Shown here: positions 5,902 through 32,294 of the stretch, piece after piece
How the letters are laid out: every line of letters begins with the position of its first letter
Numbering within the stretch: the stretch's first letter is position 1
Assembly: GCA_009392915.1 (NCBI GenBank)
Contig: CP045477.1
Location: forward strand, 512,001-576,000
DNA length: 64,000 nt
From: Candidatus Forterrea multitransposorum CG_2015-17_Forterrea_25_41
Lineage (GTDB): Archaea; Iainarchaeota; Iainarchaeia; Iainarchaeales; CSSED10-239
Reading direction: 5' to 3'
Made by a program: the position numbers and the translations under genes
The notes under the pieces: model-generated
Databases searched by the model: none
Seen by the model: the letters and a program-made list of their open reading frames with translations, nothing else
What the model was told of the DNA's origin: nothing

Positions 5902-6279
5902 ATGGTTTATTAATATGATTTTTAAAAAAATTTTTAAAAGAAATAATAAACCAAAAATTAATTTTGCAAGCTATCCTAAAAAAAAGTTAATAAAAAGTAT
6001 ATTGATTCCTTTTGGGAAAAATACTTTGATGGAACTTTAAAAAGATCTATCAATAAAAGAATAGATAATAATACAATATCTAGTTATAATCCTAATGTTA
6101 AAATATTCCCTCTTTCTCCTACAGTTGCTGTTACTATTAGAAAAATTCATAATGGAAAAAGATATCTTGAATTAAATGAATATTTTAAAAATAAACTTAA
6201 GAATAAAAAACTAAAATATTCAGAAATTGTAATTTCAGATATTATTGATTATAAAATAAAAGGAAGAGATTACTTTTTA

Positions 6280-6597
6280 ATGGAAAGAATAATTCCAGGA
6301 GCATCTGTAGCAGATGTATTAAATTATAAACTGTATAATAGAACAGCATTCTTAAATAGATTTAATGATTCATTTTTAAAAATAGTTCAGAAAATGGAAA
6401 AAAAAACTTTAGATAAAATGTATATTAATTTAGAAAAAGCAGTAAAAGAACTAAAAATAACTATTAGGAAAAATGAAAAAGAACATAAAATAGATAATTC
6501 TAAAGGAAATATTATAATTATAGACTATAATCCAAATAATGGAAAATTTAAACTAGGATTAATTGACCTTGATAGCTATTTTACATTTAGTTTTTAA
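6280..6597 (+). CDS. hypothetical protein with kinase-like hinge/catalytic-loop motifs; reading frame is open upstream to 5980 with no ATG, likely joined to 5915-6037 ORF across an A8 tract
   Basis: ERIIPGASVADV, IIIDYNPNNGKFKLGLIDLD resemble atypical protein kinase (Bud32/RIO-like) motifs; upstream frame analysis done by hand. Confidence 0.35.
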   Translation: MERIIPGASVADVLNYKLYNRTAFLNRFNDSFLKIVQKMEKKTLDKMYINLEKAVKELKITIRKNEKEHKIDNSKGNIIIIDYNPNNGKFKLGLIDLDSYFTFSF

Positions 6598-6660
6598 ACA
6601 TATTATAAAAAAAAGAGCGATGCCTATATTTTACTAATTCTTTTAAAAAAAAAGTTAAAA

Positions 6661-6678
6661 AAGTAGGAAATAATGCCT
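6661..6678. repeat. 3' half of 23S rRNA processing stem (inverted repeat partner at 9749-9766)
   Basis: aagtaggaaataatgcct is the exact reverse complement of aggcattatttcctactt at 9749-9766; flanks the 23S gene as archaeal bulge-helix-bulge processing stems do. Confidence 0.7.
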
Positions 6679-6721
6679 TTTTATAGCAAAGAGCAAGATG
6701 TTTTATTTAGTTAAAAAAAAT

Positions 6722-9700
6722 CTTAAACTTTACTCGAACCATTAGTATTAGAGAGCTTAAATACTCGCCCGAAGGCTTGCATCGTATACTCCTAACCTAT
6801 CAAACCGGTCTTCTTCCGGAGTTCTCGTCTCGCATTTCTGCGAAAATGGCTGTCTCGTTTTAGGGTTCGCTTCGTGCTTAGATGCTTTCAGCACTTATCG
6901 AATACAGCGTAGCTACTGGGCATTGCCTTGTCAGACAACCCACACACCAGAGACTGCGACCCATCGTTCCTCTCGTACTAAACGGATCTTACCTTCAAAC
7001 AACCAACACAACCAATAGATAGGAACCAAACTGTCTCGCAACGTTCTTAACCCAGCTAATGTACGGCTTTAATGAGTGAACACCTCCACCCTTGGCTGCT
7101 TGTGCACAGCCAGGATGCCGTAAGCCGACAGCGAGGTAGCAAACCGCGGGGTCGATGTGAACTCTCACCCGCGACAACCCAGTTACCCCCAGGGTAAGTT
7201 CACTGTCAGACTAGGCCCCCATAAATAGGGACACTAGCGTTCGCTAGACCCAAGTTTCCTTCCAACGTTCCGTGCTTTTAAGAACATTGTTAAGCCTGCT
7301 TTTGGTCTTGTCCTCTACGGCTGATTTCTGACCAGCCTGAGCAGACCTTTGGACGCCCCTGATATCTTTTCAGGGGCGTACCGCCCCAGTCCAACCACCC
7401 GATCAAGTGATGTCCGTCATATAGACGTAAGTTGTATTTTTCCTACTAGATGGTGTTACATTGGCGTCTGACTACTTCCTAGCGAAAGCAGCTAAAGCGA
7501 CTCCCATCTACGCTCTATAGTAAAAACAATACAACAACACCAGACTGTGGTAAACCTCCGTGGGGTCTTATCCTCCCATTGGTTGTCCGTGGCTTATTCA
7601 CCACGCTAAGCAAGTTCACTAAGTTAAAGTTAGGGACAGTGACGATCTCGTTACTTCCTTGGTGCAAGCCGACATTTAATCGGCAAGGTATTACGCTACC
7701 ATGAGAGCCTCAGAGTTAGGCCCGCTCTTTACCAGCGCTTAGACCAGTTGGACCTGGCGTTCACGTACTAGCAGTGAGCAGAAGTCAGTGACTATACACA
7801 CCGTTTCCGGCTAGCAGTCACCTGTGTTTTTGATAAACAGTCGGACCATCTTTGTAATTAAAACTTACAGTTTACTCAACCGTAAGCACCCCTTCTACCT
7901 AAGATACAGGGCTAATTTGCCGAATTCCCTTAACTTTATTCTCTTATTACGCTTTGGCCTATTCAGCCAGGGACACCTTTCTCAGTTCTGGGTACGAACA
8001 ACAATACACTTTATAGTTTCTTTTTCATGGACCCTTGGCCTTGATAAAAGATTTCTCCCATTCACCTCTTTAATCTCCATCTCATTATTATAATTCTCCG
8101 GAGATCTATAAGGTTTAGATATGCAGACAAGCATACTCCACCTTGCCAAAAGTGTTAGAAACTATACTTGCGTTACCACACGTGCATTATCGGTACAGGA
8201 ATATGAACCTGTTTCCCTTTCGTCATTCTTCGAGTTACGAAGAGACTTAGGATCGACTTACCCTTAGCTAAAGATTAGTGCTAAGGAACCCTTGCCCTTT
8301 CAGCGGAAATGATTCTCACATTTCTTTGATGTTACTATCGCGAGGATCCATATCTTTGACAGATCCAGTGGACGTTACCCCCCACCTTCTGCTCTATCAA
8401 AGCACCTACCTACCAGATCACATATTGCATGTGCTCTATGATATCGGCGACAAACTTAGCCCCGTTAATTTTCAAGGCAATCGTCCTAGATTGGTGAGCT
8501 ATTACGCACTCTTTAAAGGATGGCTGCTTCTAAGCCAACCTCCCAATTGTCTTAGGAAAACTACTCTTTTCGAATTTACACTTAGTTTGTACTTAAGGGC
8601 CTTAATCATAGTCTGGGTTTTTTCCCTTTTGGAACAGAGGCTTACCCCCCGCCCCCTACTCTGGACTTCTTAGAAAATAACAGATTCGGAGTTTAACAAG
8701 AAAGGTGGAAATTTCTTCCCAGTACTTTCTAATCAGTAGCTCTACCCCGTTATTCTTCTCCATCCATGCTAACCTCAGAGTTATTTCGATAGGAGCCCGC
8801 TATCACCAGGTTCGATAACCTTATCAGTCCTACTCCCAAGTCATACGAACAGTTAGACTAGTACCGCTTATGACCTCCACCAACCAGGCGGTTGGTTTCA
8901 TCAAGCTCAGGAGTTTATCACCTGGTTTCGGGTCTAGTTTATGTGACTTAAGGCACAGTTAATACCTTTAGCCCTCAGAATCTTGCGGCACATCGGTTTC
9001 CCTACGACACAACGACTTAATCGCTTAGTCTTGCCACACAAACTAACTCCCTCGCCCGTGCTTCGTGACGGACAGTGTGACCCTGATCAAGTAATTTGCG
9101 CTTTAAAAGTTACCTTTTATCACTTATAAATTACTCTCATTCCTTTCAAGCCACACCCGCGCTGTCACCAATTAGTTTCAAGTGCTTTTTACTCCCCGTC
9201 AAGGGATCTTTTCAACATTCCTTCGCAGTACTCGTTCACTATCGGTCTTGTGTTATATTTAGAATTAGCTGTAAATGCCAGCTATTTTCTTACGCGATAT
9301 CCAACGCGCAATACTCTAGGACATCGGAAATCTTCTCAGATATCTTCTGCTTACGGGACTATCACCCTCTATGGTAGATCTTTCCAGATCGCTTCAACTT
9401 AAATATATAAGAAGTAACCAAGCCATACCCCACATGTCTCTTATATTACTATAAGAGATTCGGTTTGTTCTCTTCTGCTTTCGATCAACTCTATTTACAG
9501 AATCACTATTGTTTTCTTTTCCTCCAGGTACTAAGATGCTTCAATTCCCTGGGTTACCCCTTCACCTTATTTTCATAAAGTGAATAATTCAGAAATCTTG
9601 GGATCAAAGGTTGCATGCACCTACCCCAAGCTTATCGCAGCTTGCCACGTCCTTCATCAGTACACAAGCCAAGTTATCCACTAATTGGTTTAGCTAAAAT
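6722..9700 (-). rRNA. rrl: 23S (large subunit) ribosomal RNA
   Basis: Reverse complement contains conserved LSU motifs, e.g. 5' region GGCTTGTGTACTGATGAAGGACGTGGCAAGCTGCGATAAGC and 3' region GCTGAAAGCATCTAAGCACGAAGC; about 3.0 kb, GC-enriched vs flanks; ends approximate. Confidence 0.9.
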
Positions 9701-9748
9701 TTAAGAATCATTTTTTTTTAACCAAATAAACTTGCTTTTGTTATTATT

Positions 9749-10593: not shown

Positions 10594-11793
10594 ATGTTAA
10601 TTGGAATTGTCGGAAAACCTAACGTGGGAAAAACAACTTTTTTTAGAGCTTTAACATTAATGGATGCAGAATCTGCAAATTATCCGTTTACAACAATTGA
10701 CCCTAACAAAGGAGTTGGTTTTGTAAGAAATAAATGTATTGATACTTTTTTTAATACACAATGCAATCCAAGAACAGGATACTGTAAAAACCACATAAGA
10801 TATCTTCCTGTAGATGTTATTGATGTTGCAGGTTTAGTTCCAGGAGCATCTGAAGGAAGAGGACTTGGAAATAAGTTTTTAACTGACCTTAACCAAGCAG
10901 ATGTTTTAATACAAGTAATTGATGCATCAGGTTCCACTGATGAAGAAGGAAAACCTGTTAAAGCTGGAAGTTATAATCCATCTCTTGAAATTAAATTTTT
11001 AGTTGAAGAAATTGAAAAATGGTTATTTGATATTTTTAAAAGAAATTTTATAAAAATTGGAACTGTTCAAAGAGTACAAAAAATTAAAACATTAAGAGTT
11101 TTAGAAGAATATCTCTATTCAACATTAGGATCAAAAGAAGAAGAAATACTTCAAGCACTTAAAAAAAGTAATTTAGTTGATAAAAATATTGCAGAATGGA
11201 CAGATGAAGAACTTTTATTTTTTACAAAAGAGATTAGAAAAGTTTCAAAACCTATAGTTATTGCTGCAAACAAAATAGATCTTCCTTTTGCAAAAGAAAA
11301 TATTGAAAGAATGAAAGAAGAATTTCCTGAACTTACAATTATTCCATGTTCTGCAGAATCAGAATATGCTCTAAAAGCTGCAGAAAAAGCAAAAATTATT
11401 GAATATCTACCAGGAGATTCTACCTTTAAAATATTGAAAGAAGATTTATCTGATAAACAAAAACAAGCTCTTGAATTTATAAAAACAAATATTTTAGAAA
11501 AATATCAAGAAACTGGAGTTCAAAAAATATTAGACACTTCTGTTTTTGAAGTTTTAAAATATATTGCAGTATATCCAGGAGGAACAAAAGGACTAGGGGA
11601 TAAAGATGGAAATATCTTACCTGACTGTTTCTTAATGCCACCTGGCTCAAAAGCAATTGATTTTGCTTTTAAACTGCATACAGACTTTGGTAAAAACTTT
11701 ATTAAAGCAATTGATGTTAAGACAAAAATGCTTCTAGGAAAAGATCATCCTTTAAAAAATAATGATTGTATTGAAATTGTTTCTGGGAAGTGA
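10594..11793 (+). CDS. Obg-like ATPase/GTPase of YchF/OLA1 family with C-terminal TGS domain
   Basis: GIVGKPNVGKTTFF (P-loop), NYPFTTIDPN, AANKID (G4), C-terminal TGS-like block AIDFAFKLHTDFGKNF...IEIV. Confidence 0.75.
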   Translation: MLIGIVGKPNVGKTTFFRALTLMDAESANYPFTTIDPNKGVGFVRNKCIDTFFNTQCNPRTGYCKNHIRYLPVDVIDVAGLVPGASEGRGLGNKFLTDLNQADVLIQVIDASGSTDEEGKPVKAGSYNPSLEIKFLVEEIEKWLFDIFKRNFIKIGTVQRVQKIKTLRVLEEYLYSTLGSKEEEILQALKKSNLVDKNIAEWTDEELLFFTKEIRKVSKPIVIAANKIDLPFAKENIERMKEEFPELTIIPCSAESEYALKAAEKAKIIEYLPGDSTFKILKEDLSDKQKQALEFIKTNILEKYQETGVQKILDTSVFEVLKYIAVYPGGTKGLGDKDGNILPDCFLMPPGSKAIDFAFKLHTDFGKNFIKAIDVKTKMLLGKDHPLKNNDCIEIVSGK

Positions 11794-11797
11794 AAAA

Positions 11798-12313
11798 ATG
11801 GCAATAAAAATAGAACTTAAAGAGAATCTTACAAAAGAAGAATATGATCAAATTTCTCAGATATATGCAAAAACATTTACAATCAAAAATGAATTTACAG
11901 AAACAAATTTAAGTTTGAAAAATTGTAATAAATTGTTTGAAAAATTTCCTAAATCTTCTGCTCTTATAAAAGATAATAAAAAAACAATTGGACAAACATG
12001 GATTGTCCCTACAAATAGAAAAATAATGACTGAATTTCTTGAAAATAAAATAACAGAACAAGAAATGGTTTTAAAGTCTTTAAAAAAAGTTTCTTTAGAT
12101 AACTTTAATTGCATTTATCTTTTTTATTCTTCAATATTTCAAAAATATAGAAGACAAGGATTAATATTCAAAGCAAGAATAAAAACATTAAACCACTACA
12201 TTAAATTTAATAAAAAAATAATTCTATTTGCATGGGTATACTCTAAAGAAGGAGAAAACCTAGCAATAAAGACTGCTGAAAAATATAAACTACCTTTAAT
12301 TATTAAAAAATAA
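11798..12313 (+). CDS. hypothetical protein (start chosen at internal Met to avoid overlap; ORF is open from 11762)
   Basis: ORF 11762-12313; MAIKIEL start at 11798 follows stop of upstream gene. Confidence 0.4.
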   Translation: MAIKIELKENLTKEEYDQISQIYAKTFTIKNEFTETNLSLKNCNKLFEKFPKSSALIKDNKKTIGQTWIVPTNRKIMTEFLENKITEQEMVLKSLKKVSLDNFNCIYLFYSSIFQKYRRQGLIFKARIKTLNHYIKFNKKIILFAWVYSKEGENLAIKTAEKYKLPLIIKK

Positions 12314-13696
12314 TTATTTTAAAATAAGATTAAACTTCTTTTTATTTCTTTTATTAAATAAATAATCTATGTCAGTTTCTTTAATAGTTACTTTTTTAGA
12401 TTTAATAATCTTTATTTTATCTCCATTTTTAAGAAGATGAGACTTATCTTTAATTATTTCTCCATTAATTTCTGCAAAATAAAAATATTTTGCAAAATCA
12501 GAATGAAGAGAAAATGCAAAATCTAGAAGAGTTGATTTTTTTGGGATTACAATTTCTTGATTTGTTTGGGTATAAACACTAATATAATCTATATATGAAA
12601 TATCTTTTGGTTTTTCAATTAATGTTTTATCTTTTAAAATATTAATTAAACGATTATCTTTTTCAGAAAATTCAATATTTTTATAGTGGAAATGAGCAGA
12701 AACACCAAACTCAGCATTGTTATGCATATCTATAGTTCTTATTTGTATTTCTAAAGGAAATCCATCTAAAATAATATTTAAGTGAATAGATTGATAACCA
12801 TTTTCTTTAGGATGCTTAATAAAATCTCTTACCTTTATATCATTATTCTCAATTACATTCAAATTATCTTTAATAAATTTTAAAGCAACATAACATTCTT
12901 TCTTAGAATTATAAATTAACCTTAAAGCATAAATATCTAAAACTTCATCAATATTATTTTTTTCTTTTCTAATAAATATTTTCTGAAATAAACTACCAGG
13001 ACTTTTATATCTATAATTATAAGTTATTGGCTTATGACCTGAATTTTTTAAAAGATTAATAACAGTTTCTTTTAAAGAAGTAAGTTTTTCTAAAGGATAT
13101 CTTTTTTTAAGTTCAGCATAATTTTTATTAAAACTATCTTTATATTTTAATTTCATTAGTTGAGTTAAAAAATCTTCTTTAAAATTTTGCATACCAAGTT
13201 GATAAGCTAAAGGAAAAATTGCAATTTCAATAATATCTAAAAATCTTTTTTTAAATTCAGGATCTTTTATTTTAGGAAAATAATCTAAAATAACTAAAGC
13301 TTCACCAAAAGTAATAATAATTGCTTCAATTTTAAAAAAAGACTGAACAATCATATTTTTAATTTTTATAGGAGAAATAGAAGGATTATTTATTAGATTA
13401 TAAAAATTAATAAAATAAATATCTTTAGATATCTTTCTAATAATTTTTACAAAACCCTTTTCTTTAATATTTAAATTATATTTATAAGGATTATAAAGAA
13501 CAGATGAAATTATAATATTTTCATCATAAACATTTAATCTTTTAGCAATAGCTAGAGAATATTCTACTAAAGATATATTCTTAAAAACATATTTATCAGA
13601 ATAATTATCTATAATTAAATTATATGATTTTTCAATATTTGAAGTATAATCTTTAATTAATTCTTTATATTCTTTTACAAATTTATTTTTAATCAT
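12314..13696 (-). CDS. RelA/SpoT homolog (long RSH-like): degenerate N-terminal domain, (p)ppGpp synthetase domain, C-terminal TGS domain
   Basis: Synthetase core DFIKHPKENGYQSIHLNII...EIQIRTIDMHNNAEFGVSAHFHYK; TGS block LLDFAFSLHSDFAKYF...GDKIKII; no intact HD motif seen in N-terminal region. Confidence 0.7.
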   Translation of the reverse strand: MIKNKFVKEYKELIKDYTSNIEKSYNLIIDNYSDKYVFKNISLVEYSLAIAKRLNVYDENIIISSVLYNPYKYNLNIKEKGFVKIIRKISKDIYFINFYNLINNPSISPIKIKNMIVQSFFKIEAIIITFGEALVILDYFPKIKDPEFKKRFLDIIEIAIFPLAYQLGMQNFKEDFLTQLMKLKYKDSFNKNYAELKKRYPLEKLTSLKETVINLLKNSGHKPITYNYRYKSPGSLFQKIFIRKEKNNIDEVLDIYALRLIYNSKKECYVALKFIKDNLNVIENNDIKVRDFIKHPKENGYQSIHLNIILDGFPLEIQIRTIDMHNNAEFGVSAHFHYKNIEFSEKDNRLINILKDKTLIEKPKDISYIDYISVYTQTNQEIVIPKKSTLLDFAFSLHSDFAKYFYFAEINGEIIKDKSHLLKNGDKIKIIKSKKVTIKETDIDYLFNKRNKKKFNLILK

Positions 13697-18385: not shown

Positions 18386-20980
18386 TTAAGAAATTATTCT
18401 TATATTAATTTCTGATTCTTGGTTTTCTAATATTTGATGAACAGTTGCATTGATATCAGTTGTTTGTGCTTTAATAATACCAACATCAGTTAAGATAGAA
18501 TCAATGTTTGTCCTAACCTCACCACTTAAAAGATTCCATGTATTTAAAGTAGTTTGATTAATTTCTTCTAACTTTTGTGCTTGTGTTTGATCCATTATTT
18601 CAATAGCTGTTTTAATATTATAAACTTCTTGACATAATGGGCTGTTGTTAGTATCTTCATTACCACAAAAGTTTTCAACTAATGCAAGATTATCATCAAC
18701 TGATGAAAATCTGTTTCTAATTTCTCCCATGTCTTCTTGATTAATTGAATTTGAAACTAACCAATTAGTATCTTGCTTAATTGATGTTAATTGATTTGTT
18801 AAATCTTCAAGCATTAAATCAAGTTGAACATTAATATTGTTTACAACTAAATCTGTCATTAAACTTGAAAGAGAATCATTTACATCAATTATCTGTGTCT
18901 GTAATGTTTGACCTGTTGAAACAACAGTTCCATTTACAGAAATCTCTAAATTATCAAGTCTTGTTGAAAGGAAATCATTTGAATCTGAAAACTTTTGTGC
19001 AATCAATGCATTTGTATAATTAAATTGATTTGTAATTTCAGTAGATAAATTAACATTAACAGCATTTAAAAGATCTGTTAAAGAAGTTGAAACATTTGTT
19101 AAATTTGTATTTATTTCTTCACCAGTTTCTGTAACAGTTGCAGTTAATGATAAATTTACATTATCAAGTTGACTAGATAATTCTGCAAATCTTAAATCAA
19201 TCTTATCTGAAAGATCAGTATTAACTGTGTTTAAAAGATTTGAAAGAGTTGTTGTTGAAAGAGAAATATTTGTATTTATCTCTTCACCTGTCTCTTCTAA
19301 ATTTGCATTTAAACTTAAATTAACATTTGTAAGTTGATCAGATAATTGATTAAATCTTAAATCAATCTTATCTGAAAGATCTGTATTAACTGTGTTTAAA
19401 AGATTTGAAAGAGTAGTTGTTGAAAGAGAAATATTTGTATTAATCTCTTCTCCAGTCTCATCTAAATTTGCATTTAAACTTAAACTTACATTTGTAAGTT
19501 GATTAGATAATTCTGTAAACTTTAAATCAATCTTATCTGAAAGATCTGTATTAACTGTATTTAAAAGACCAGTTAAAGAAGTTGAAACATTTGTTAAATT
19601 TGTATTTATTTCTTCACCAGTTTCTTCTAAATTTGCAGTTAAACTTAAATTTACATTTTCTAAATTATTTTGAGAAGTATTAAAATCTTCTTCTAATTGA
19701 TTTAATAAATTATTATTTACTGAATTTAATAAATCTAAAATATTTGTTGTAGAAGTATTAATATTTGTATTAATCTCTTCTCCTGTAGTTGTAACTGTAC
19801 CTGTTAAATTTAAACTAACATCATTTAAATTTGCAGTTAAAGAATTATAATCAAATTCCATTTGATCTAAAAGACCAGAATTAACTGAATTTAAAAGATT
19901 AGTTAAATTTGTGTTTGTAGTATCAATATTTGTATTTATTTCTTCGCCTGTTAAAAGAACAGTTCCTGTTAAATTTAAACTAACATCATTTAAATTTTCA
20001 TTTAATGAATTTAAATCAGAATCCATTTGATCTAAAAGACCAGAATTAACTGAATTTAAAAGATTAGTTAAATTTGTGTTAGTTGCATCAATATTTGTAT
20101 TAATTTCTTCACCAGTAGATGCAATTGTTCCAGTTAAATTTAAATTTACATTATTTAAATTTGCATTTAAAGAATCAAAATTTGTATCCATTTGTTCTAA
20201 AATACCAGAATTAACATTTGATAAAAGATTTTCTAAATTTGTATTAACATTTGTTAAACTTGTTTGAATTTCTTCACCAGTTGATGAAATTGTACCTGTT
20301 AAAGAAAGATCAACACCTGAAAGATCAGTTTGTAATGTTACAATTCCTTCTTGTAATTCATTTGCAAGAGTTCCATTAACATCTGCAAGTAAATCATTTA
20401 AAGAAGTATTCATGTTTGTTAAATTTGTTGTAATATATTCTCCAGTTTCAGAAATTTGACCAGCTACAGAAACATTAACATCTGCAAGTCTTAAATCTAA
20501 ATTATCTGATTTTTCGGTTAAAACACTTATTTGTTCAAGTGCTGGATTTAAGTGAAAAGATTGTGAACTTTTTACAATTGTTGCACCACTTCTACAAGTT
20601 ACTTCTTGTTCATAAGTTCCTAAAGGAGCATCTCCTAAATAATCTGTTCTATACCAGTTTCCTGCAATATTTGATTCAGACATTGGCTGATCATCAACAA
20701 ATACAGATTTGTCTGGATGCAGTATAGTTACTCTACATTCATCTATTGGATAAGGATTACCTTTATAGTCTGATAATCTAACAATAGTTGAACCATAATC
20801 TTCTCTCCAGTATTCTGTGTGAGAAACCCATTGGAAAGAAATTTCATCTTCAACAACAGTTTTTCCACTAACATAAGCAGTTGCTAAAAAGGCAACAACA
20901 ATTAATAAAACACCTAAAATACTTAATTTTAAGTATTTATTTCTTTTTTTCTTATCTGTCATAATTACTCTTAACCTCAT
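18386..20980 (-). CDS. large repeat-containing surface (S-layer/adhesin-like) protein with about 10 tandem 53-58 aa repeats
   Basis: 864 aa; signal-anchor; repeats of consensus N(V/L)SL(N/T)...TGEEINTN...LLN(S/T)VN...; extremely rich in N-x-S/T sequons. Confidence 0.7.
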   Translation of the reverse strand: MRLRVIMTDKKKRNKYLKLSILGVLLIVVAFLATAYVSGKTVVEDEISFQWVSHTEYWREDYGSTIVRLSDYKGNPYPIDECRVTILHPDKSVFVDDQPMSESNIAGNWYRTDYLGDAPLGTYEQEVTCRSGATIVKSSQSFHLNPALEQISVLTEKSDNLDLRLADVNVSVAGQISETGEYITTNLTNMNTSLNDLLADVNGTLANELQEGIVTLQTDLSGVDLSLTGTISSTGEEIQTSLTNVNTNLENLLSNVNSGILEQMDTNFDSLNANLNNVNLNLTGTIASTGEEINTNIDATNTNLTNLLNSVNSGLLDQMDSDLNSLNENLNDVSLNLTGTVLLTGEEINTNIDTTNTNLTNLLNSVNSGLLDQMEFDYNSLTANLNDVSLNLTGTVTTTGEEINTNINTSTTNILDLLNSVNNNLLNQLEEDFNTSQNNLENVNLSLTANLEETGEEINTNLTNVSTSLTGLLNTVNTDLSDKIDLKFTELSNQLTNVSLSLNANLDETGEEINTNISLSTTTLSNLLNTVNTDLSDKIDLRFNQLSDQLTNVNLSLNANLEETGEEINTNISLSTTTLSNLLNTVNTDLSDKIDLRFAELSSQLDNVNLSLTATVTETGEEINTNLTNVSTSLTDLLNAVNVNLSTEITNQFNYTNALIAQKFSDSNDFLSTRLDNLEISVNGTVVSTGQTLQTQIIDVNDSLSSLMTDLVVNNINVQLDLMLEDLTNQLTSIKQDTNWLVSNSINQEDMGEIRNRFSSVDDNLALVENFCGNEDTNNSPLCQEVYNIKTAIEIMDQTQAQKLEEINQTTLNTWNLLSGEVRTNIDSILTDVGIIKAQTTDINATVHQILENQESEINIRIIS
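19030..20300. repeat. tandem DNA repeats (units about 160-174 bp) encoding the surface-protein repeats
   Basis: Near-identical 174-bp units visible e.g. 19140-19660 (ttgtatttatttcttcaccagt...aaatcaatcttatctgaaagatc recurring). Confidence 0.7.
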
Positions 20981-21751: not shown

Positions 21752-22807
21752 TTATTTTTTAAGCTCAATTGTTTGAGTTGGGAAAGCAAACTCAATTTTT
21801 GCTTTTTCAAATTCTTTTTTAATTGCAGTATTTACTTCATCTTTTGTTTTCATATAAACATCATAATCTCCTGGAATCCAGTAAATAACTCTTATATTTA
21901 ATGAAAAATCTCCAAAAGACTCAAAAGTTACATAAAAAGAATCTTTTTCAACATTTTTATTTTTATTTAAAATGTTTGTAACAATTTTCTTACCTTCTTC
22001 CATTTTCTTTAAAGAAGTACCGTAAGTTAAACCAAGAGTAAAATTTTCTTTTCTTGCTCTTCTTTGAGAAATATTTTCAACAGCAAAAGAAGATAATTCT
22101 CTATTTGGAACAACAATTAATGTATTATCAAAAGTTCTTACCTTTGTTGATCTGATACCAATTTCTTCAACAATACCTGTTCCATCTTTTGTAGTTAATA
22201 TATCATCTATCTTAAATGGTTTTTCAATAAATATAACAATTCCTGCTAAGAAATTTTCAACAATATCTTTAGATGCCATTGCAAGTGCAAGACCACCAAT
22301 TCCAAGACCTGCAAGTAAAGCACTTATATTATATCCAAAATTTGATAAAACTAAAAGAACTGCTATAATAAACAAAAATATTTTTATTAAAGATTTTAAT
22401 AAAGGGATTAATTGATCATCATATTTAGAATCTGTTTTTGCAGCATAAGTTTCAAAATATTCTTCAATAAGACCTATGAAAAATTTTATTAAAAATAAAG
22501 TAACTGCTAAAACATAGATTAAAAAAGATACTTGCTTAATTGCAGTATCCCACCATGTAGAAACAGATAATCTTACAAAACCAATATTAAAAAATATTGT
22601 TAAAATAACAATCTTAAAAGGTAAAGGTTTTGATAAAATTCTTGAAATAATATCATCAACTTTATTTTTTGTAAAGTTTGATAATCTTGTTAAAAAACGT
22701 TTACTTATAAAGACTATTATTCCACTTACAATAAACCCTAACAATATAAAAAACAAAAACCATAAATAATCTTTAACTGTATTTCCTAAAAAAATTTGAT
22801 CTAACAT
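21752..22807 (-). CDS. mechanosensitive ion channel, MscS family
   Basis: 351 aa; TM helices then conserved MscS core AGLGIGGLALAMASKDIVENFLAGIVIFIEKPFKIDD...VVPNRELSS. Confidence 0.85.
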   Translation of the reverse strand: MLDQIFLGNTVKDYLWFLFFILLGFIVSGIIVFISKRFLTRLSNFTKNKVDDIISRILSKPLPFKIVILTIFFNIGFVRLSVSTWWDTAIKQVSFLIYVLAVTLFLIKFFIGLIEEYFETYAAKTDSKYDDQLIPLLKSLIKIFLFIIAVLLVLSNFGYNISALLAGLGIGGLALAMASKDIVENFLAGIVIFIEKPFKIDDILTTKDGTGIVEEIGIRSTKVRTFDNTLIVVPNRELSSFAVENISQRRARKENFTLGLTYGTSLKKMEEGKKIVTNILNKNKNVEKDSFYVTFESFGDFSLNIRVIYWIPGDYDVYMKTKDEVNTAIKKEFEKAKIEFAFPTQTIELKK

Positions 22808-22921: not shown

Positions 22922-23626
22922 ATGAAAGATAAACCAATTGTAGAACTTAAGAATGTATCTAAAATATACAAGATGGGAGATGTTGAAGTTAAAGCTGTAA
23001 ATGATGTCTCATTAGAAATATATCCAAAAGAATTTGTTGCAATTATGGGTGCATCAGGTTCAGGAAAATCAACAATGATGCATTTAATCGGTGCACTTGA
23101 TTTGCCTACAAAAGGAGAAATATATATTAAAAAACAAAAATTAAATAAATTTACAGAAAACCAACTTTCAAATCTTAGAGGAAAAACAATTGGTTTTGTT
23201 TTTCAAGATTTTTATTTAATCTCAACATTAACAGCTCTTGAAAATGTAAGATTACCTATTCTTTTTCAAGAAAACGATGAAACTGAAGAAGAATATAATA
23301 AAAGATGTATAAATTTGCTTGAAATTGTAGGACTTCAAGATAGAATAAATCACAAACAAACAGAGCTTTCTGGAGGTCAACAACAAAGAGTTGCAATTGC
23401 AAGAGCTCTAGCAAATGATCCTGAAATAATTTTAGGAGATGAACCTACAGGTGCACTTGATTCTAAATCTTCAAAAGAAATAATTAATCTTTTTAAAAAA
23501 TTAAATAATATTGGAAAAACAATAATAATTATTACACATGATTTAAATGTTGCAAAAAATGCAAAGAGAATAATTACTTTAAAAGATGGTAAAATAATAG
23601 AAGATAAAAAAAACAAACCAGAATAA
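22922..23626 (+). CDS. ABC transporter ATP-binding protein (MacB/LolD-like)
   Basis: Walker A GASGSGKST, signature LSGGQQQRVAIARAL, Walker B IILGDEPTGALD, H-loop ITHD. Confidence 0.9.
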   Translation: MKDKPIVELKNVSKIYKMGDVEVKAVNDVSLEIYPKEFVAIMGASGSGKSTMMHLIGALDLPTKGEIYIKKQKLNKFTENQLSNLRGKTIGFVFQDFYLISTLTALENVRLPILFQENDETEEEYNKRCINLLEIVGLQDRINHKQTELSGGQQQRVAIARALANDPEIILGDEPTGALDSKSSKEIINLFKKLNNIGKTIIIITHDLNVAKNAKRIITLKDGKIIEDKKNKPE

Positions 23627-23628
23627 AC

Positions 23629-24819
23629 ATGAAAAAAATAATACCTTTTGTAATAATGAATCTTAAAAGAAGAAAACTTAGAAGTTATTTAACAATCATT
23701 GGTATAATTGTAGGTGTAATTGCAATAGTTTCATTAATGTCTCTTTCAGAAGGTTTAAAATCAGGGATAACTGAAGAATTCTCAAAAACTGGTGCACAAA
23801 AAATAACAATTTCATCAAAATATTCTATGATGGGACAAGGTTCAAATAAAGGACTTACTTTAGATGATGTTAAAGAAATTGAAAGAATTGGAGAAGTTGA
23901 TTTTGCAACAGGATATTTAAATTCACAAACAATATCTAAATTTTCAAAAGAAGAAAGACAATTAAGTGTTACAGGATATCAAGTGGACAACTATGAAAAA
24001 ATATTAACCCAAGAAGGAAAAGAACTATTAAGAGGAAAATATATTGATTCTGATAAATCTAATGAAATCATTATAGGATATGATCTTTTTGCAAGCGATG
24101 AATATTTTGGAAAAATTATAAAACTTGGAGACTCTATTGAAATTTCAAATAATAATTATAAAGTAGTTGGAATATTAGATGATACTGGAAATGTAAATAA
24201 CGATAGAAAAATATATATGTCTCTTGAAAATTTAAGAGAAATTTCAAATGCAGGAGAAAAAGAAGTTGATGGGATATATGCATTTGCAAAAGAAACTTCA
24301 GATATTGAAAAGACTGGAGAAAAAATAGAAGAAAGTCTTGAAAAATTTAGAGATCAAGAAGATTTTGTTGTAACAACACCAGTTAAAGAAGCAGAAAATA
24401 GAGCACAAACTTTAGAAGCAGTTTCAATTGTTGTTGTAGGAATTGCAACTATTTCTTTACTTGTTGGAGGAATTGGAATCTTAAACTCAATGTATACTTC
24501 TGTTCTTGAAAGAAGAAGAGAAATTGGAGTTATGAAAGCTATTGGTGCAAGAAGAGAAGATATTTTAGGAATCTTTTTAATTGAAGCTGGAATAATAGGA
24601 CTTATTGGTGGGATAATAGGAACTATCGGTGGATTTTTAATTGCTTTTATAGTAAATATTATAGGACAATTTACAGGTACAGAAATAAATTTATCATTTG
24701 ATATAACAATTATTTTAATAGCACTAGGATTTTCTTTTATCCTTGGATTAATTGCAGGTTTTCTTCCAGCATACCAAGCCTCAAAACAACAAGCAATTGA
24801 TTCTTTAAGAGAGGAATAA
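23629..24819 (+). CDS. ABC transporter permease, FtsX/MacB-like (large periplasmic loop + 4 TM)
   Basis: 396 aa; N-terminal TM, extracytoplasmic domain, C-terminal FtsX-like helices with GGIGILNSMYTSVLERRREIGVMKAIGA. Confidence 0.8.
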   Translation: MKKIIPFVIMNLKRRKLRSYLTIIGIIVGVIAIVSLMSLSEGLKSGITEEFSKTGAQKITISSKYSMMGQGSNKGLTLDDVKEIERIGEVDFATGYLNSQTISKFSKEERQLSVTGYQVDNYEKILTQEGKELLRGKYIDSDKSNEIIIGYDLFASDEYFGKIIKLGDSIEISNNNYKVVGILDDTGNVNNDRKIYMSLENLREISNAGEKEVDGIYAFAKETSDIEKTGEKIEESLEKFRDQEDFVVTTPVKEAENRAQTLEAVSIVVVGIATISLLVGGIGILNSMYTSVLERRREIGVMKAIGARREDILGIFLIEAGIIGLIGGIIGTIGGFLIAFIVNIIGQFTGTEINLSFDITIILIALGFSFILGLIAGFLPAYQASKQQAIDSLREE

Positions 24820-24823
24820 AAAT

Positions 24824-25483
24824 ATGTTAAAACAAAAATATGGAAGCACTAGAGTTGAAAAAAAAGGAGTTAGTGCATTCATTAATAATAAAAAGGAAAT
24901 TTGGCCTGCCTTTGGTCAAGAATATAGATACAGTCACATATTTATTAAAAAATTTAGTGAAAAACCATTTTTACATTTAAAAAAAATTAAAAAAGAAAAA
25001 CCAAAAATTATGGTTTTAGGAGCAGGACTTGGAGTTGATTTAATAGAATTTAAAAAAGCATTAAATTTAATTAAAATTAATCCAACAATTGATGTTCTTT
25101 CATTAACAAAATCATTATCTCCAAGAGCTAAAAAAATAGTTAATAAGGATTATTCACAAAACAAAGCAATTGAAACAATTGATTTTAAAAAAGAAACAAA
25201 ACTAGCATCAAATTTAAAAAGCAAATACGATCTTGTAGTAGCTCCATTAAGTGTTGGAGTATATACTGATCATCCTTCATATAATATGTTTTTAACCTCA
25301 TTAATGTTAAGTAAAAATGGAAAAGCATATATTGAATTAGGAGAATTTAAATTAAAAACAGTTACAAGATTTAAAAAATTTGTAGAAATATATAATCTGC
25401 AAAATAAAACAGATTATAGATTTACAGTAAATAAAATTAATCCAAATGAAGAAAAATTTTTAGAAATAACAAGAACAAATTAA
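24824..25483 (+). CDS. hypothetical protein (Rossmann-like MVLGAGLGVDL motif)
   Basis: 219 aa ORF in ABC operon. Confidence 0.4.
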   Translation: MLKQKYGSTRVEKKGVSAFINNKKEIWPAFGQEYRYSHIFIKKFSEKPFLHLKKIKKEKPKIMVLGAGLGVDLIEFKKALNLIKINPTIDVLSLTKSLSPRAKKIVNKDYSQNKAIETIDFKKETKLASNLKSKYDLVVAPLSVGVYTDHPSYNMFLTSLMLSKNGKAYIELGEFKLKTVTRFKKFVEIYNLQNKTDYRFTVNKINPNEEKFLEITRTN

Positions 25484-25484
25484 G

Positions 25485-26738
25485 GTGAAAAAAATGAATT
25501 TAAAAAAAATAATGCTTATCTTGGTTGCAATTATGTTACTTGCAATACCAATTACAGCAAATGAAGTAAATTATGATATAATAAATTTAAATGCAGATAC
25601 ATATAATTACAATCCAACACCAGTAATTTCAGGTGAAGATTTTGAAATCTGGATACAACTTACAAACAAAAGTAATGTAGCTGCAGAAAATGTAGAATAT
25701 TTTTTAGAAACAGAATATCCATTTATTCTAATTTCTGAAAATGAAGGACTAATTAATAAATTAGAACCTTTTCAATCAAAAATTATAAAATATAAATTAA
25801 AAACAAACACTGATGTTTTAACTGGAACTTATGATCTTGAATTTAGATATAAAAGAGAAGGATCAAACATCTATAATGTCAAAAAATATATAATTGATGT
25901 TAAAGGAAAAAGTGCAATAATTGAACTTATTGATTCTTCTTTTAATAATGCAAAGATAGGTGCTGATGGAACAGTTACACTTAATTTAAAAAATTTAGGT
26001 CAAAAGAATGCAAAAGATATTTTCTTAACATTAAATGATTCTGAAGATGAAAGTATAAAAGTAATTGATCTTAAAACACAGTATATTGAAAAAATAAATA
26101 CAGAAGAAGAAACAGAAGTTTCATTTAAAATAAATATTTCTAAAAATGCAGAAAACATAAGTTATAGTCTTCCATTAACTATTAGTTATTCTGATGTTGA
26201 TAGAGAATATACAATCACTAGAAATATAGGTCTAAAGTTAGAAGATCAACCAAAAATGATACTTAATGTTTTAGATATAGGAACTAATTTTAAGATTAAA
26301 GAAAATAGTGAAGAAAAAATATCTGTTGAAATATATAATATTGGAAATGTAGATACTGAAGTTTCATACATTACAGTTAATGGAGAAGGTATAAGACCAA
26401 CTCAAGAGTTTATAGGATCTATTGAAAAAAATAACTATGATACTATAGAGTTAACAATTAACACAACAGATATTAAAGAAAAAGAAACAAAATTAATAAT
26501 TAATTTATTCTATAAAGATAGTAATCTTAAAGAAGAAAAAATAACTCAAGAAATAACAGTTGAAGTTATGCCTCAAGCAAATGGACAAGGTGCAAATAAA
26601 GTAATAATGTCTATTTTTAGTATTTTGTTATTTATTGTAGGTCTTGCAATATTAATACTTCTTATAAAATGGCTAATAAGAATACTTATCAAACCTGCAT
26701 TAAATGTTTTAAAAGAAACTTTTAAAAGAAGAAAATAA
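25485..26738 (+). CDS. exported protein with C-terminal TM anchor (CARDB/S-layer-domain-like), ABC-associated
   Basis: 417 aa; signal peptide, beta-rich repeats, C-terminal hydrophobic helix plus basic tail. Confidence 0.5.
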   Translation: MKKMNLKKIMLILVAIMLLAIPITANEVNYDIINLNADTYNYNPTPVISGEDFEIWIQLTNKSNVAAENVEYFLETEYPFILISENEGLINKLEPFQSKIIKYKLKTNTDVLTGTYDLEFRYKREGSNIYNVKKYIIDVKGKSAIIELIDSSFNNAKIGADGTVTLNLKNLGQKNAKDIFLTLNDSEDESIKVIDLKTQYIEKINTEEETEVSFKINISKNAENISYSLPLTISYSDVDREYTITRNIGLKLEDQPKMILNVLDIGTNFKIKENSEEKISVEIYNIGNVDTEVSYITVNGEGIRPTQEFIGSIEKNNYDTIELTINTTDIKEKETKLIINLFYKDSNLKEEKITQEITVEVMPQANGQGANKVIMSIFSILLFIVGLAILILLIKWLIRILIKPALNVLKETFKRRK

Positions 26739-26782
26739 TTTTTCTTCTTATTTTTTATTTTTAAAAGAAATTTAGAAAAATC

Positions 26783-28006
26783 ATGAGTTTTGAAAAATAT
26801 AAACATTTGTTAGATTTAACAATTAAAAATATCTTCAGAAGAAGATTAAGATCAATATTAACAATTATAGCTGTAGTTATTGGAATTGCAACTATTGTTT
26901 CTCTTTTTTTAATAAGTGATGGTTTATTTAATTATGTTGAAGATGTTTTTATGACAATGGGAATAAATACAGTTTTTATTTTTCCTATAAGCTTTCAAGG
27001 AGGTCCTACTCAAAGTATTAGTAGAATTACAGAAGATATAATGATAACAGAAAAAGATCTTAAAATAATTGAAAGAATTGGAGAAATAGATTATGCTATA
27101 GGTTTTTCTTTTAGAACTGCAAAAATAGAATATAGAAATGAAGAAATATTTCAGTTTGCAATAATGCTGGATCCAAAGCTTGCTGATAAAACTTTTGAAA
27201 TTATGGATATTGATTTAAGAGAAGGAAAATCTTTACAAGGAAGAATCGCTTATGAAGTTGTAATTGGACCTTATTTTGCAGATAATCTTTTTAAAGATCC
27301 AATAAAGGTAGGACAAAAAATAAAAATACAAGATAAAGAGTTTAAAGTTATTGGAATTTTAGAACCAGTTGGTAATCTTGCAGACGATTCTCAAGTCTAT
27401 ATTACTTTAGATAAAGGAAGAGAAATATTTGAAATTGGAGATACTATTGATCAAATATATGCAAATGTTAAAGAAGAATATGATCCTTTAGAAGTACAAG
27501 AAGAAATTGAAAAAAGACTTGAAAAAGAACATGGTAAAGATAAATTTTATATAATTACTGCAAAACAAGTACTTTCAATTATTAAATCAGTGCTTGGATT
27601 ATTAAAAGTAATTTTAGTATCTATTGGTTTAATTTCAGTTGTTGTTGGAAGTATTGGAATCATGAACTCAATATATACATCTGTTATTGAAAGAACAAAA
27701 GAAATTGGTATTTTAAAATCATTAGGTGCAAAGAGAGAAGATATTTATTTTATATTTACAATTGAATCTGTTATTCTTTCTTTATTTGGAGGAATTATAG
27801 GTTTAGGACTAGGGATAGGAATTGCAAAAGCTGTTGAGTTTTATGCAACAAGTCAAGGTTTTCTAACTCTAAAAATAGTTATAGGTTGGCAAATTATATC
27901 ACTTGCTTTAATTGTATCAATAGTTGTTGGTTTAATATCTGGTCTTTTGCCTTCAAGAAAAGCTTCTAGAATGAATGTTGTTGAAGCACTAAGAAATAAC
28001 TTTTAA
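26783..28006 (+). CDS. ABC transporter permease, FtsX/MacB-like (second copy)
   Basis: 407 aa; same architecture as 23629-24819 (GSIGIMNSIYTSVIERTKEIGILKSLGA). Confidence 0.8.
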   Translation: MSFEKYKHLLDLTIKNIFRRRLRSILTIIAVVIGIATIVSLFLISDGLFNYVEDVFMTMGINTVFIFPISFQGGPTQSISRITEDIMITEKDLKIIERIGEIDYAIGFSFRTAKIEYRNEEIFQFAIMLDPKLADKTFEIMDIDLREGKSLQGRIAYEVVIGPYFADNLFKDPIKVGQKIKIQDKEFKVIGILEPVGNLADDSQVYITLDKGREIFEIGDTIDQIYANVKEEYDPLEVQEEIEKRLEKEHGKDKFYIITAKQVLSIIKSVLGLLKVILVSIGLISVVVGSIGIMNSIYTSVIERTKEIGILKSLGAKREDIYFIFTIESVILSLFGGIIGLGLGIGIAKAVEFYATSQGFLTLKIVIGWQIISLALIVSIVVGLISGLLPSRKASRMNVVEALRNNF

Positions 28007-28622: not shown

Positions 28623-28695
28623 GCCTCTATAGCTCAGTGGCTAGAGCGGCAGTCTTGTAAACTGTAGGTCGAGGGTTCAAATCCCTCTAGAGGCT
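28623..28695 (+). tRNA. tRNA-Thr (anticodon TGT)
   Basis: Manual cloverleaf: acceptor gcctcta/tagaggc, D arm gctc/gagc, anticodon stem gcagt/actgt, loop ctTGTaa, T arm gaggg-ttcaaat-ccctc, discriminator T. Confidence 0.9.
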
Positions 28696-28705
28696 TCTTT
28701 TTATT
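28692..28705. repeat. target-site duplication, left copy (ggcttctttttatt), overlapping last 4 nt of tRNA-Thr
   Basis: Perfect 14-bp direct repeat with 37074-37087, immediately outside the TIRs. Confidence 0.65.
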
Positions 28706-28769
28706 GGGTTATAGCTATTTCACTTTTTTTGTACGCTTTTTAATCTTTTCTACACTAATAAATATTTAT
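28706..28769. repeat. casposon left terminal inverted repeat
   Basis: gggttatagctatttcactttttttgtacgc vs reverse complement of right end gggttatatatatctaattatttttgtacgt: 26/33 identical, further similarity ctaata-aatatttat with indels. Confidence 0.6.
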
Positions 28770-29487
28770 GGATAATAAGTATTTAAAATATATAAATAAT
28801 TTTGTTGAAACTGATTTTAAAATTCCAAATGAATTTAAAAATAAAAATATGTTTGGATCACTAAAAAACTTTCATAAGGGATTAGATCCAGAAACTATAT
28901 TACGAGGACTAATTCAATTAATACCTGCAGGTGGATTGATCGAAAAATATTTGTTTGCTAATAAAGATAAAAATGAAATAAAAAAAATTTATTATTTTTT
29001 GTATTGTTATTATATACAAATAAATAAAATAATTGAGGATAATAAAAATAAAATTGATCAAAAATATTTAAAAACAGAACAATTTTATAATTTATTTAAA
29101 CAATGTATTGAAAAAATAAGATTTGAAACTGAAATTAGTAAAATTCAATTATTTAAGAATTTTCTAATTAATGCAAGTATTTTAAATAATAAAAATATAG
29201 ATAAAGAATATATTTTATCAAAATTAGATAATATTTCTTTAAATCATTTTGAAATAATAGACTGGTATTATAAATATAACTACATTATAATTACAGGGAT
29301 TGGTTCCGAATACGATCAAAATAAAAAAAAAATTAAATTAAAATATTCTTATTTTGATTCTTATGAAAATGATTTAGCAACAATTGGTTTTTTAAATAAA
29401 ATTAATGGATTAGGAAGTGTTGAACGATATTATTTAACAAAATTAGGACTTGATTTTTATAATTTTATAAAATATGATGATTTGTAA
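28768..29487 (+). CDS. hypothetical protein (casposon cargo)
   Basis: 239 aa ORF starting inside the left TIR. Confidence 0.45.
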   Translation: MDNKYLKYINNFVETDFKIPNEFKNKNMFGSLKNFHKGLDPETILRGLIQLIPAGGLIEKYLFANKDKNEIKKIYYFLYCYYIQINKIIEDNKNKIDQKYLKTEQFYNLFKQCIEKIRFETEISKIQLFKNFLINASILNNKNIDKEYILSKLDNISLNHFEIIDWYYKYNYIIITGIGSEYDQNKKKIKLKYSYFDSYENDLATIGFLNKINGLGSVERYYLTKLGLDFYNFIKYDDL

Positions 29488-29527
29488 AAATAATATCTAT
29501 GATTTTCATAAATTATTGTTTTAATTT

Positions 29528-29986
29528 TTAATAGTCTGGATTATACTTTTTAATTAATTTAGATTTTATTAATTCAATTATAAATAAAGCAATAAAAAAA
29601 TAAATTATTAATTCTATAGTAAAACTATCTCGTAAATTTATGTCGTTAAAATTGGCAAGTATTTTTGATATTAATTGTATTGATGGAATAATAAATAAAG
29701 AAAATACAATTGTAATAAATAGATTTTTATTTTTTGAACTTATAAAGCTAATATTTTTTAGCGAAAATGTTTTATATATTCTTTTAAATAAAAAAACTAG
29801 TATGCAAAGATACATAATAAAAATAATAATAATAGCAATAACTTCTTTAAATTCTGGAAATAAAACCGGAAACTTTTCATTTAAAATTATATGAATCATT
29901 GCTAAATAATATAATCCAAAATAAGATAATAAAATAATAGGTTCAAAAAAATTCTTTTTAAATTTGATTAAATTTTCTAATTTCAC
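29528..29986 (-). CDS. hypothetical membrane protein (casposon cargo)
   Basis: 152 aa, 4 hydrophobic helices. Confidence 0.4.
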   Translation of the reverse strand: MKLENLIKFKKNFFEPIILLSYFGLYYLAMIHIILNEKFPVLFPEFKEVIAIIIIFIMYLCILVFLFKRIYKTFSLKNISFISSKNKNLFITIVFSLFIIPSIQLISKILANFNDINLRDSFTIELIIYFFIALFIIELIKSKLIKKYNPDY

Positions 29987-29990
29987 ATTT

Positions 29991-32002: not shown

Positions 32003-32066
32003 AAAAAAACCTTATCAAATTATGTATCAACTTATAAATATTATATATTACAATAAGTTTAAATAC

Positions 32067-32110
32067 ATATCATTTTAGATATCAAAATGGATATTAAATA
32101 TAAATATCAT
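32067..32110. promoter_or_regulatory. candidate operator: imperfect palindrome atatcattttaGATATCaaaatggatat plus third half-site atatcatt, in divergent promoter region of casposon
   Basis: Read directly; located between cas1 operon (leftward) and RHH-HNH-polB operon (rightward). Confidence 0.35.
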
Positions 32111-32153
32111 TCTTTTTCGTCATAAGTTATCTATTGACTTAAAAGGTGATGTT

Positions 32154-32294
32154 ATGTGTAGAGTTATATTTACTCTTCCCAAATATATAAAACAAAAATT
32201 AGAAAAAATAGCAAAAGAAAAAAATACAACACAATCTGAATTGATTAGAGCCTCTCTTTATTTGTATTTAGATAAGGAGAGTGATAATAAATGA
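32154..32294 (+). CDS. ribbon-helix-helix (CopG/Arc/MetJ-like) DNA-binding protein
   Basis: 46 aa MCRVIFTLPKYIKQKLEKIAKEKNTTQSELIRASLYLYL: beta-strand + two helices RHH pattern; stop overlaps next start (ATGA); below ORF-track size cutoff. Confidence 0.6.
   Translation: MCRVIFTLPKYIKQKLEKIAKEKNTTQSELIRASLYLYLDKESDNK

Follow-up and report, generated by a model that had tools for sequence, protein, structure and literature searches.

A gene for a RelA/SpoT homologue (RSH) was identified on the reverse strand at positions 12314 to 13696 of a 64,000-nucleotide stretch of the Candidatus Forterrea multitransposorum genome (GenBank accession number CP045477.1; coordinates 512,001 to 576,000), which is referred to here, at its full length, as the window. 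The product of 460 amino acids (aa) belongs to the RSH superfamily, and it is a derived, naturally truncated and hydrolase-dead descendant of a long RSH that is confined to a small clade of Iainarchaeota. It is likely, with a probability put at about 0.65, that it works as a functional, monofunctional alarmone synthetase that arose from a long RSH and is gated through its TGS domain by uncharged tRNA, following a logic like that of RelA. The gene and the domains of its product are as follows.

12314..13696, reverse strand: RSH gene, 460 aa from ATG to stop, with the order pseudo-HD, synthetase (SYN), linker, TGS, short helical tail
13097..13696, reverse strand: pseudo-hydrolase (degenerate HD-fold) domain, aa 1-200, placed by hhalign, the clade profile and Foldseek
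12677..13096, reverse strand: SYN domain with the full catalytic set, aa 201-340, placed by PDB alignment and clade alignment
12590..12676, reverse strand: flexible SYN-TGS linker, aa 341-369, with pLDDT below 50 for residues 332-364
12392..12589, reverse strand: TGS domain, aa 370-435, including H398, placed by Pfam
12314..12391, reverse strand: short C-terminal tail, aa 436-460, and stop codon, with helices at 440-445 and 449-459 in the AlphaFold2 (AF2) model

A preliminary description of this open reading frame (ORF) had proposed a long RSH with a (p)ppGpp synthetase core and a C-terminal TGS domain, and the strings that it quoted (GYQSIHLNII...EIQIRTIDMHNNAEFGVSAHFHYK) are present in the reverse-strand translation. 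Both domains were recovered in Pfam searches, RelA_SpoT (PF04607) at residues 229-340 (E 1.7e-29; 102.8 bits; profile positions 2-110 of 113) and TGS (PF02824) at residues 372-432 (E 1.3e-11; 44.8 bits), the curated cut-offs being 27 bits and 22.2 bits, respectively. As the profile searches gave RelA_SpoT, the alternative that the core might belong to another nucleotidyltransferase family was not borne out. No Pfam match to HD, HD_4, RelA_RIS or ACT was found in the 460-aa sequence.

A PDB search with the single RSH sequence aligned residues ~110-436 to Escherichia coli RelA and Bacillus subtilis Rel, and the profile of the clade was aligned over positions 11-460 to residues 18-483 of B. subtilis Rel (E 1.4e-41). 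When the clade profile was compared using hhalign with a set of 14 long RSHs that have an intact HD domain, the two were aligned over 436 columns with a probability of 100% (E 2.6e-65). The AF2 model of the RSH (pLDDT 83.6; pTM 0.80), in which disorder is confined to residues 1-5 and the linker (332-364), was matched by Foldseek to crystal fragments of Rel comprising the HD and SYN domains over ~350 columns, with TM scores normalised to the target of 0.71-0.74, and also to full-length Rel, RelA and SpoT, TGS included. An HD-fold or pseudo-HD domain fused to SYN and followed by TGS, as in a long RSH, is therefore present, and the C-terminal helical, RIS/ZFD and ACT/RRM domains are missing. The designation as a long RSH thus holds for the core of the protein, which is truncated.

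Conservation of the synthetase catalytic residues, which the preliminary description had left as a point to verify, was found to be complete. The RSH carries R229, K231, S235, K239, D254, R259, K297, N299, Y301, H305, E316 and Q318, which correspond in that order to R241, K243, S247, K251, D264, R269, K304, N306, Y308, H312, E324 and Q326 of B. subtilis Rel, and none of the 12 varies among 16 clade sequences with 44-94% identity. Over the whole domain, 45 of 140 columns do not vary within the clade, and dN/dS is 0.11. The guanosine-binding PKxNGYxSxH motif is kept in the clade, and the K-V-R-D motif of the RSH is of the basic xxRD type. Substitution of D264 of Rel by glycine (D264G) has been cited as synthetase-dead (PMC7797070). 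As the SYN residues are invariant at 44-94% identity and the lowest dN/dS of the protein (0.11) falls in SYN, a dead enzyme is not expected, and the protein is very unlikely to be a relic without catalytic activity or to serve purely as a regulatory RNA-binding protein.

The linker that follows SYN is the least conserved segment, with two of its 29 columns invariant in the clade, and in the TGS domain 15 of 66 columns are invariant and dN/dS is 0.11. H398, itself invariant in the clade, aligns with H432 of E. coli RelA and H420 of B. subtilis Rel, the histidine through which the TGS domain of these enzymes stacks on the free 3'-CCA of deacylated tRNA. Specific binding of deacylated tRNA has been shown for a TGS-helical fragment on its own, and regulation by the ribosome requires the C-terminal domains (PMC7797070). 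The RSH stops 25 aa past TGS, with the same end in all clade members (455-467 aa), and the short tail is what is left of the beginning of the helical domain. On the 3' side of the RSH gene, no gene able to supply RIS/ZFD or ACT was found; the ORF that comes next lies on the other strand, so the C-terminal part is not encoded by a separate, split-off gene.

The preliminary description had found no recognisable HD hydrolase motif, and this is correct in that the motif is lost and neither HD nor HD_4 is matched. However, the N-terminus is a degenerate HD fold and not an unrelated extension. Residues 1-200 align column for column with the HD domain of Rel in the clade profile and in hhalign, and this profile-profile alignment, together with the fold match, identifies them as an HD-fold domain. 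Of the Mn2+ ligands of Rel, H53 is replaced by Y46, the H77-D78 dyad by Y68-N69 and the fourth ligand, D144, by E132; the ED pair is also lost, and the metal-ligand replacement is consistent through the clade. The N-terminal domain is a conserved pseudo-HD domain with its catalytic site gone, and since the Mn2+ site has been lost, no hydrolysis of (p)ppGpp by this domain is expected. Loss of the HD catalytic and metal residues with retention of the fold is a feature that the window RSH shares with monofunctional enzymes of the RelA type, [hS].

Conservation of the pseudo-HD domain (34 of 200 columns invariant in the clade, with the patterns YDE..I...L.NPY and RK..D.Y..NF; dN/dS 0.20) goes beyond the need of a passive scaffold, and no other hydrolase was found nearby. 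Both would fit a bifunctional enzyme in which the remodelled N-terminus, with Tyr, Asn and Glu for His, Asp and Asp, degrades the alarmone at a non-canonical site. However, residues unable to bind metal stand in for the ED pair and for three of the four Mn2+ ligands, no Pfam HD or HD_4 match was obtained, and RelA retains its pseudo-HD domain for allostery alone, with pppGpp binding to the RelA N-terminal domain (PMC7797070), making a bifunctional enzyme quite improbable.

Relatives of the RSH were sought among 5.8 billion proteins, which yielded 15 close clusters (455-467 aa; 44-94% identical), every one with RelA_SpoT and TGS only, before the score fell from 378 to 139 bits, where bacterial long RSHs start. 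An exhaustive hidden Markov model (HMM) scan of 1.84 billion representatives returned one clade sequence (P0015), a more divergent one (P0121) and a fragment (P0122), followed by a continuum of matches at 206 bits or less. The clade is small, and the genomes that carry it are named Candidatus Iainarchaeum, ainarchaeum or 'archaeon', which correspond to Iainarchaeota (Diapherotrites) of the DPANN superphylum. Overall dN/dS of the RSH gene, relative to an orthologue with 94% identity, is 0.16, and its GC content of 0.19 is in line with the surroundings. The gene is a long-term resident under purifying selection, and is neither a recent insertion nor a pseudogene.

The comparison with bacterial RSHs that had been proposed was made using a neighbour-joining tree (59 sequences; 452 columns; 100 bootstraps), and was informative at shallow depth, where the window clade is monophyletic (bootstrap 100) with the sequence P0159 as its sister (bootstrap 88). 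P0159 is a 452-aa protein with RelA_SpoT and TGS only, and its contig bears bacterial-type cardiolipin synthase and PurA genes. Support does not exceed 52 at deeper nodes, and the clade sits on a long, fast-evolving branch; as a result, no donor can be named and the attempt to name a donor lineage was given up. Because of the same low support, the tree does not decide between descent from a 630-aa DPANN form and a separate acquisition. A restriction to Iainarchaeota and the bacterial origin predicted for such genes (PMC8407392) nevertheless fit the suggestion in the preliminary description of either a horizontal acquisition or a lineage-specific enzyme.

The analysis established the family and fold of the protein, the conservation of its residues, its truncation, the purifying selection on its gene and its residence in an archaeon; for the product, the gating by tRNA, the ribosome independence and the absence of a hydrolase we infer the following. 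Most likely, the 3'-OH of GDP or GTP would receive pyrophosphate from ATP, giving (p)ppGpp, and the pseudo-HD domain would be kept as a partner of SYN with a structural or allosteric role, as it is in RelA. As the TGS domain keeps the CCA-stacking histidine, uncharged tRNA captured by H398 would be the likely input signal. Sensing probably occurs off the ribosome or via another partner, because the RIS/ZFD and ACT/RRM docking domains are gone, and off-ribosome sensing of tRNA is plausible given that the isolated TGS-helical fragment binds deacylated tRNA (PMC7797070). Removal of the alarmone would go through a non-RSH enzyme or through dilution. An HMM search of the window and the clade loci, in which every ORF of 50 aa or more was scanned, detected no separate HD-type hydrolase, only the RSHs themselves.

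Several points weigh against a TGS-gated (p)ppGpp synthetase. The RSH reached 165.8 bits with the NCBIfam model TIGR00691 (spoT_relA), far under the curated cut-off of 499.2. In bacteria, a synthetase without a hydrolase is toxic (Atkinson 2011, PMC3153485), and the HMM used to look for a hydrolase was built from intact HD domains and covered only the window and flanking loci. Activation through TGS would have to work without the helical, RIS and ACT domains. The toxic small alarmone synthetases (toxSAS) are relatives whose active sites have similar motifs, yet they produce (pp)pApp or transfer pyrophosphate to tRNA (bioRxiv 10.1101/2021.04.30.441581), and as they share such motifs but have other products, the product of the window RSH is not fixed from its sequence.

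With a different acceptor, (pp)pApp would be made, or the 3'-CCA of tRNA would be pyrophosphorylated as by the toxSAS FaRel2 and CapRel, with TGS presenting the substrate. RSH enzymes with this activity on tRNA are known (bioRxiv 10.1101/2021.04.30.441581), and the window RSH has kept the CCA-stacking TGS histidine and lost all ribosome-binding domains, has no RSH hydrolase nearby and belongs to a clade on a long, fast-evolving branch. However, the nearest proteins by sequence, profile and fold are long RSHs, with small alarmone synthetases (SASs) and toxSAS scoring much lower, and the PKxNGYxSxH and basic xxRD motifs match Rel. The gene is also a stable chromosomal resident under purifying selection, with a leucyl-tRNA synthetase (LeuRS) gene and a convergent ORF as neighbours and no antitoxin-like neighbour or bicistronic layout. 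A different acceptor is therefore unlikely, and synthesis of (p)ppGpp under the control of uncharged tRNA is preferred.

The genetic context of the RSH gene in the window includes the following features.

6722-9705, reverse strand: complete archaeal large subunit (LSU, 23S) rRNA gene, LSU_rRNA_archaea 2488 bits, 2.6 kb from the RSH gene
10594..11793, forward strand: YchF-related Obg-family GTPase, 399 aa, NF007171 521.1 bits (cut-off 387), profile positions 4-396 of 397
11762..12313, forward strand: conserved hypothetical ORF between the GTPase and RSH genes, 183 aa, 44-51% identical to the ORFs at the same position in the related loci L002, L006 and L008
13740..16607, reverse strand: archaeal-type LeuRS, TIGR00395 leuS_arch 786 bits, directly upstream of the RSH gene with a gap of 43 nt

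The host was correctly described as an archaeon, the LSU rRNA match and the adjacent LeuRS both being archaeal. RSHs are typically bacterial and the data are metagenome-assembled genomes (MAGs), which would be compatible with bacterial contamination or a mis-assembled contig. Such an origin is barely credible, however, as the archaeal LSU rRNA gene lies 2.6 kb off and the LeuRS gene 43 nt upstream, the AT-richness of the RSH gene equals that of its surroundings (the window has ~24% GC), and the RSH gene is found at the same place, in the same gene order, in at least eight independent archaeal assemblies named Iainarchaeum, ainarchaeum or archaeon.

In the recurrent arrangement, a methyltransferase gene is followed at some distance by LeuRS and RSH genes in one direction, and these converge with a YchF-like GTPase gene and then a 167-183-aa ORF, with zero to two variable ORFs between this ORF and the RSH gene. 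The order LeuRS-RSH-GTPase was seen in seven related loci (L002, L003, L004, L006, L007, L008 and L009), and the whole block of ~12 kb is syntenic. The divergent clade member L015 (accession number CAYXWT010000005.1, assembly GCA_964468895.1; coordinates 5913-9288) has its RSH gene between an Orn/Arg decarboxylase gene and an arginase-family gene on the same strand. These neighbours belong to polyamine synthesis. The third gene downstream is of the HIT family and FEN1 is encoded on the contig, though this is a single observation.

The convergent GTPase had been noted in the preliminary description as YchF-like and as ending, like the RSH, in a TGS domain. Orientation, family and TGS were all confirmed (Pfam domains MMR_HSR1, YGR210-like_G4 and C-terminal TGS), but the two genes are not adjacent, as a conserved ORF lies between them. 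No particular significance attaches to the shared TGS and the orientation: this is an ordinary housekeeping archaeal YchF-related protein outside any RSH system, the block is syntenic and the neighbours in L015 differ, so both the TGS domain of the GTPase and the place of its gene are coincidental. A functional link between RSH and GTPase via TGS was rejected, as TGS is part of the definition of the GTPase family, one or more ORFs intervene and no GTPase gene lies near the L015 RSH gene. A LeuRS-RSH operon reflecting a tRNA-charging logic was also considered, but is not favoured. As the whole block is syntenic and the L015 neighbours are different, adjacency to LeuRS and GTPase genes is lineage synteny and provides no evidence of a module.

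Alignment of the intervening ORF indicates that its probable start is Met13 (nt 11798), giving a protein of ~171 aa, and with this start the apparent 32-nt overlap with the GTPase gene disappears. No credible Pfam, NCBIfam or PDB profile match was found for it, only chance-level or compositional ones, and a possible GNAT motif was rejected because the resemblance is not conserved among the homologues. The ORF at this position is missing in L003.

The 23S rRNA gene is isolated: the 64-kb window contains neither a 16S nor a 5S rRNA gene, and the rRNA genes are therefore unlinked. Three ORFs inside the 23S rRNA gene (7824-8093, 8278-8673 and 9096-9377) are spurious. An Rfam match to the Plastid-ycf2 5'UTR at 608-681 on the forward strand, exactly at the gathering threshold, is antisense to a reverse-strand tRNA-Met(CAT) gene and is a false positive.

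Elsewhere in the window, an 864-aa protein (18386-20980, reverse strand) contains ~7 copies of a tandem 165-nt (55-aa) repeat at 19099-20303 with 75-84% identity. It has sub-threshold Apolipoprotein-like matches and fits a repetitive helical or coiled-coil protein; in L006 and L008, its place is taken by a shorter ORF of 636 aa. A MacB-type ABC export cluster (22922-28006, forward strand) comprises an ATPase, two MacB_PCD/FtsX permeases, a CARDB-domain protein and an unannotated 219-aa ORF, and is adjoined by an MscS channel gene (21752-22807, reverse strand) and a methyltransferase gene.

A Cas1 gene was also found, within a segment bounded by direct repeats.

29991-31172, reverse strand: Cas1 gene, Pfam 2e-62, TIGR00287 204 bits
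about 28707-37073: 8.4-kb element enclosing the Cas1 gene, flanked by the 14-bp direct repeat GGCTTCTTTTTATT

The two copies of the direct repeat are at 28693-28706, where the repeat overlaps the 3' end of a tRNA-Thr gene, and at 37074-37087, with imperfect 36-nt terminal inverted repeats (GGGTTATA...TTTTTGTACG) just inside both. No CRISPR array was found anywhere in the 64-kb window, and the other seven ORFs of the element gave no confident family match, PolB not being recognised. The segment at 28693-37087 looks like a casposon-like mobile element.

The statement in the preliminary description that long RSHs are generally absent from archaea agrees with the RSH census of Atkinson 2011, in which archaea are without long RSHs (PMC3153485), but is outdated for DPANN. 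According to Li et al. 2021, the share of genomes with RelA/SpoT is 69% in Diapherotrites, 42% in Woesearchaeota, 21% in Pacearchaeota and 19% in Nanoarchaeota; these genes, predicted there to be of bacterial origin, were noted at annotation level and without further analysis (PMC8407392). In the available text of the supplementary tables to Jimmy et al. (bioRxiv 10.1101/575399), the terms Diapherotrites, Woesearchaeota, DPANN and Archaea do not occur, and a 2023 review described (p)ppGpp as undescribed in archaea and a major role there as improbable (PMC10249747).

Complete HD-SYN-TGS-RIS-ACT proteins of ~630 aa occur in MAGs of Diapherotrites and Woesearchaeota. One of them (P0135), labelled 'Candidatus Diapherotrites archaeon', has HD_4, RelA_SpoT, TGS, RelA_RIS and ACT_4 and is encoded on a 270-kb contig beside an intein-containing RadA gene and an archaeal TGT gene, and another (P0127) is labelled 'Candidatus Woesearchaeota archaeon'. 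The genes for P0031 and P0111 adjoin a family-B DNA polymerase gene, that for P0031 being also near FEN1 and Trm5/TYW2 genes. Decay of the HD dyad was seen in several sequences, with HN in P0135 and P0129, HG in P0031, HC in P0141, YD in P0121 and YN in the window clade, and P0020, P0187 and others are also among the short, AT-rich RSHs, some of them archaeal, with a decayed dyad. These sequences suggest that hydrolase activity may have been lost repeatedly in small-genome lineages.

To our knowledge, no archaeal RSH has been characterised so far, and the 460-aa window protein, conserved and apparently catalytically complete as judged from its residues, could serve as a test case for (p)ppGpp in archaea. 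It is also a natural experiment, a long RSH with TGS as its sole regulatory domain and no hydrolase site, and may bear on how the stringent response arose and how portable it is, as well as on starvation sensing in reduced-genome symbionts. A more tentative proposal, considered possible but doubtful, is that the window clade and the fuller DPANN RSHs form the core of an archaeal (p)ppGpp response that would be ribosome-independent, triggered by uncharged tRNA and cleared by an unrelated enzyme. If true, such a response would overturn the view that (p)ppGpp has no role in archaea. The enzyme family, the pseudo-HD domain and the C-terminal truncation were each known before, making the finding incremental rather than categorical, and the surprise is limited because RelA/SpoT had already been reported in DPANN at annotation level.

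Among known proteins, the DPANN long RSHs (~625-640 aa; P0135, P0127 and P0124) come from the same superphylum as the window clade, are among the best non-clade matches to the clade profile (181-195 bits) and share the HD-fold, SYN and TGS core. Unlike the window RSH, they have an HD_4 Pfam match and ACT_4, with RelA_RIS also in P0135; their gene neighbourhoods differ, and no supported node of the tree makes them the sister group of the window clade. Short HD-SYN-TGS RSHs of small-genome bacteria (~470-500 aa) resemble the window RSH in ending soon after TGS, but keep the HD and ED motifs with a strong HD_4 match, are presumably bifunctional judging by these motifs, and fall apart from the window clade in the tree. 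The context of one such gene (P0038), beside topoisomerase I, DprA and ParB genes, is bacterial.

SASs such as RelP and RelQ share the synthetase fold and catalytic motifs with the window RSH. However, they are single-domain tetramers without HD-fold or TGS domains, and their matches were far weaker (TM scores normalised to the query of 0.22-0.27; E 1e-5 to 1e-8); with its pseudo-HD and TGS domains, the window RSH is not an SAS. The bicistronic layout of toxSAS is also lacking, as no conserved small partner gene was found on the same strand at the window locus or the clade loci.

E. coli RelA (GTP pyrophosphokinase), a monofunctional long RSH of the [hS] type, resembles the window RSH in having an HD-fold N-terminus without a metal site, an intact SYN domain and a TGS domain with the CCA-sensing histidine (H432; here H398). 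Identity is only ~21%, and RelA is a 744-aa protein with ribosome-docking helical, RIS/ZFD and ACT/RRM domains, whereas the window RSH stops 25 aa past TGS and its host is an archaeon. In 2007, Sajish et al. reportedly described an acidic EXDD motif in RelA. The x-x-R-D of the window clade is nearer to the RXKD of bifunctional Rel than to this acidic motif, and as the motif is basic and the clade lies apart from the proteobacterial sequences in the tree, the window RSH is not an orthologue of gamma/beta-proteobacterial RelA.

The best match by both sequence (E 1.4e-41) and structure (Foldseek E 3e-22) is a truncated construct of B. subtilis Rel (PDB 6YXA), the match spanning HD, SYN and TGS and reaching into the first part of the helical domain. 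Unlike the window RSH, B. subtilis Rel is bifunctional: its HD site is intact and its C-terminal region is complete. The construct in 6YXA was shortened artificially, whereas the truncation of the window RSH is a natural and conserved gene end.

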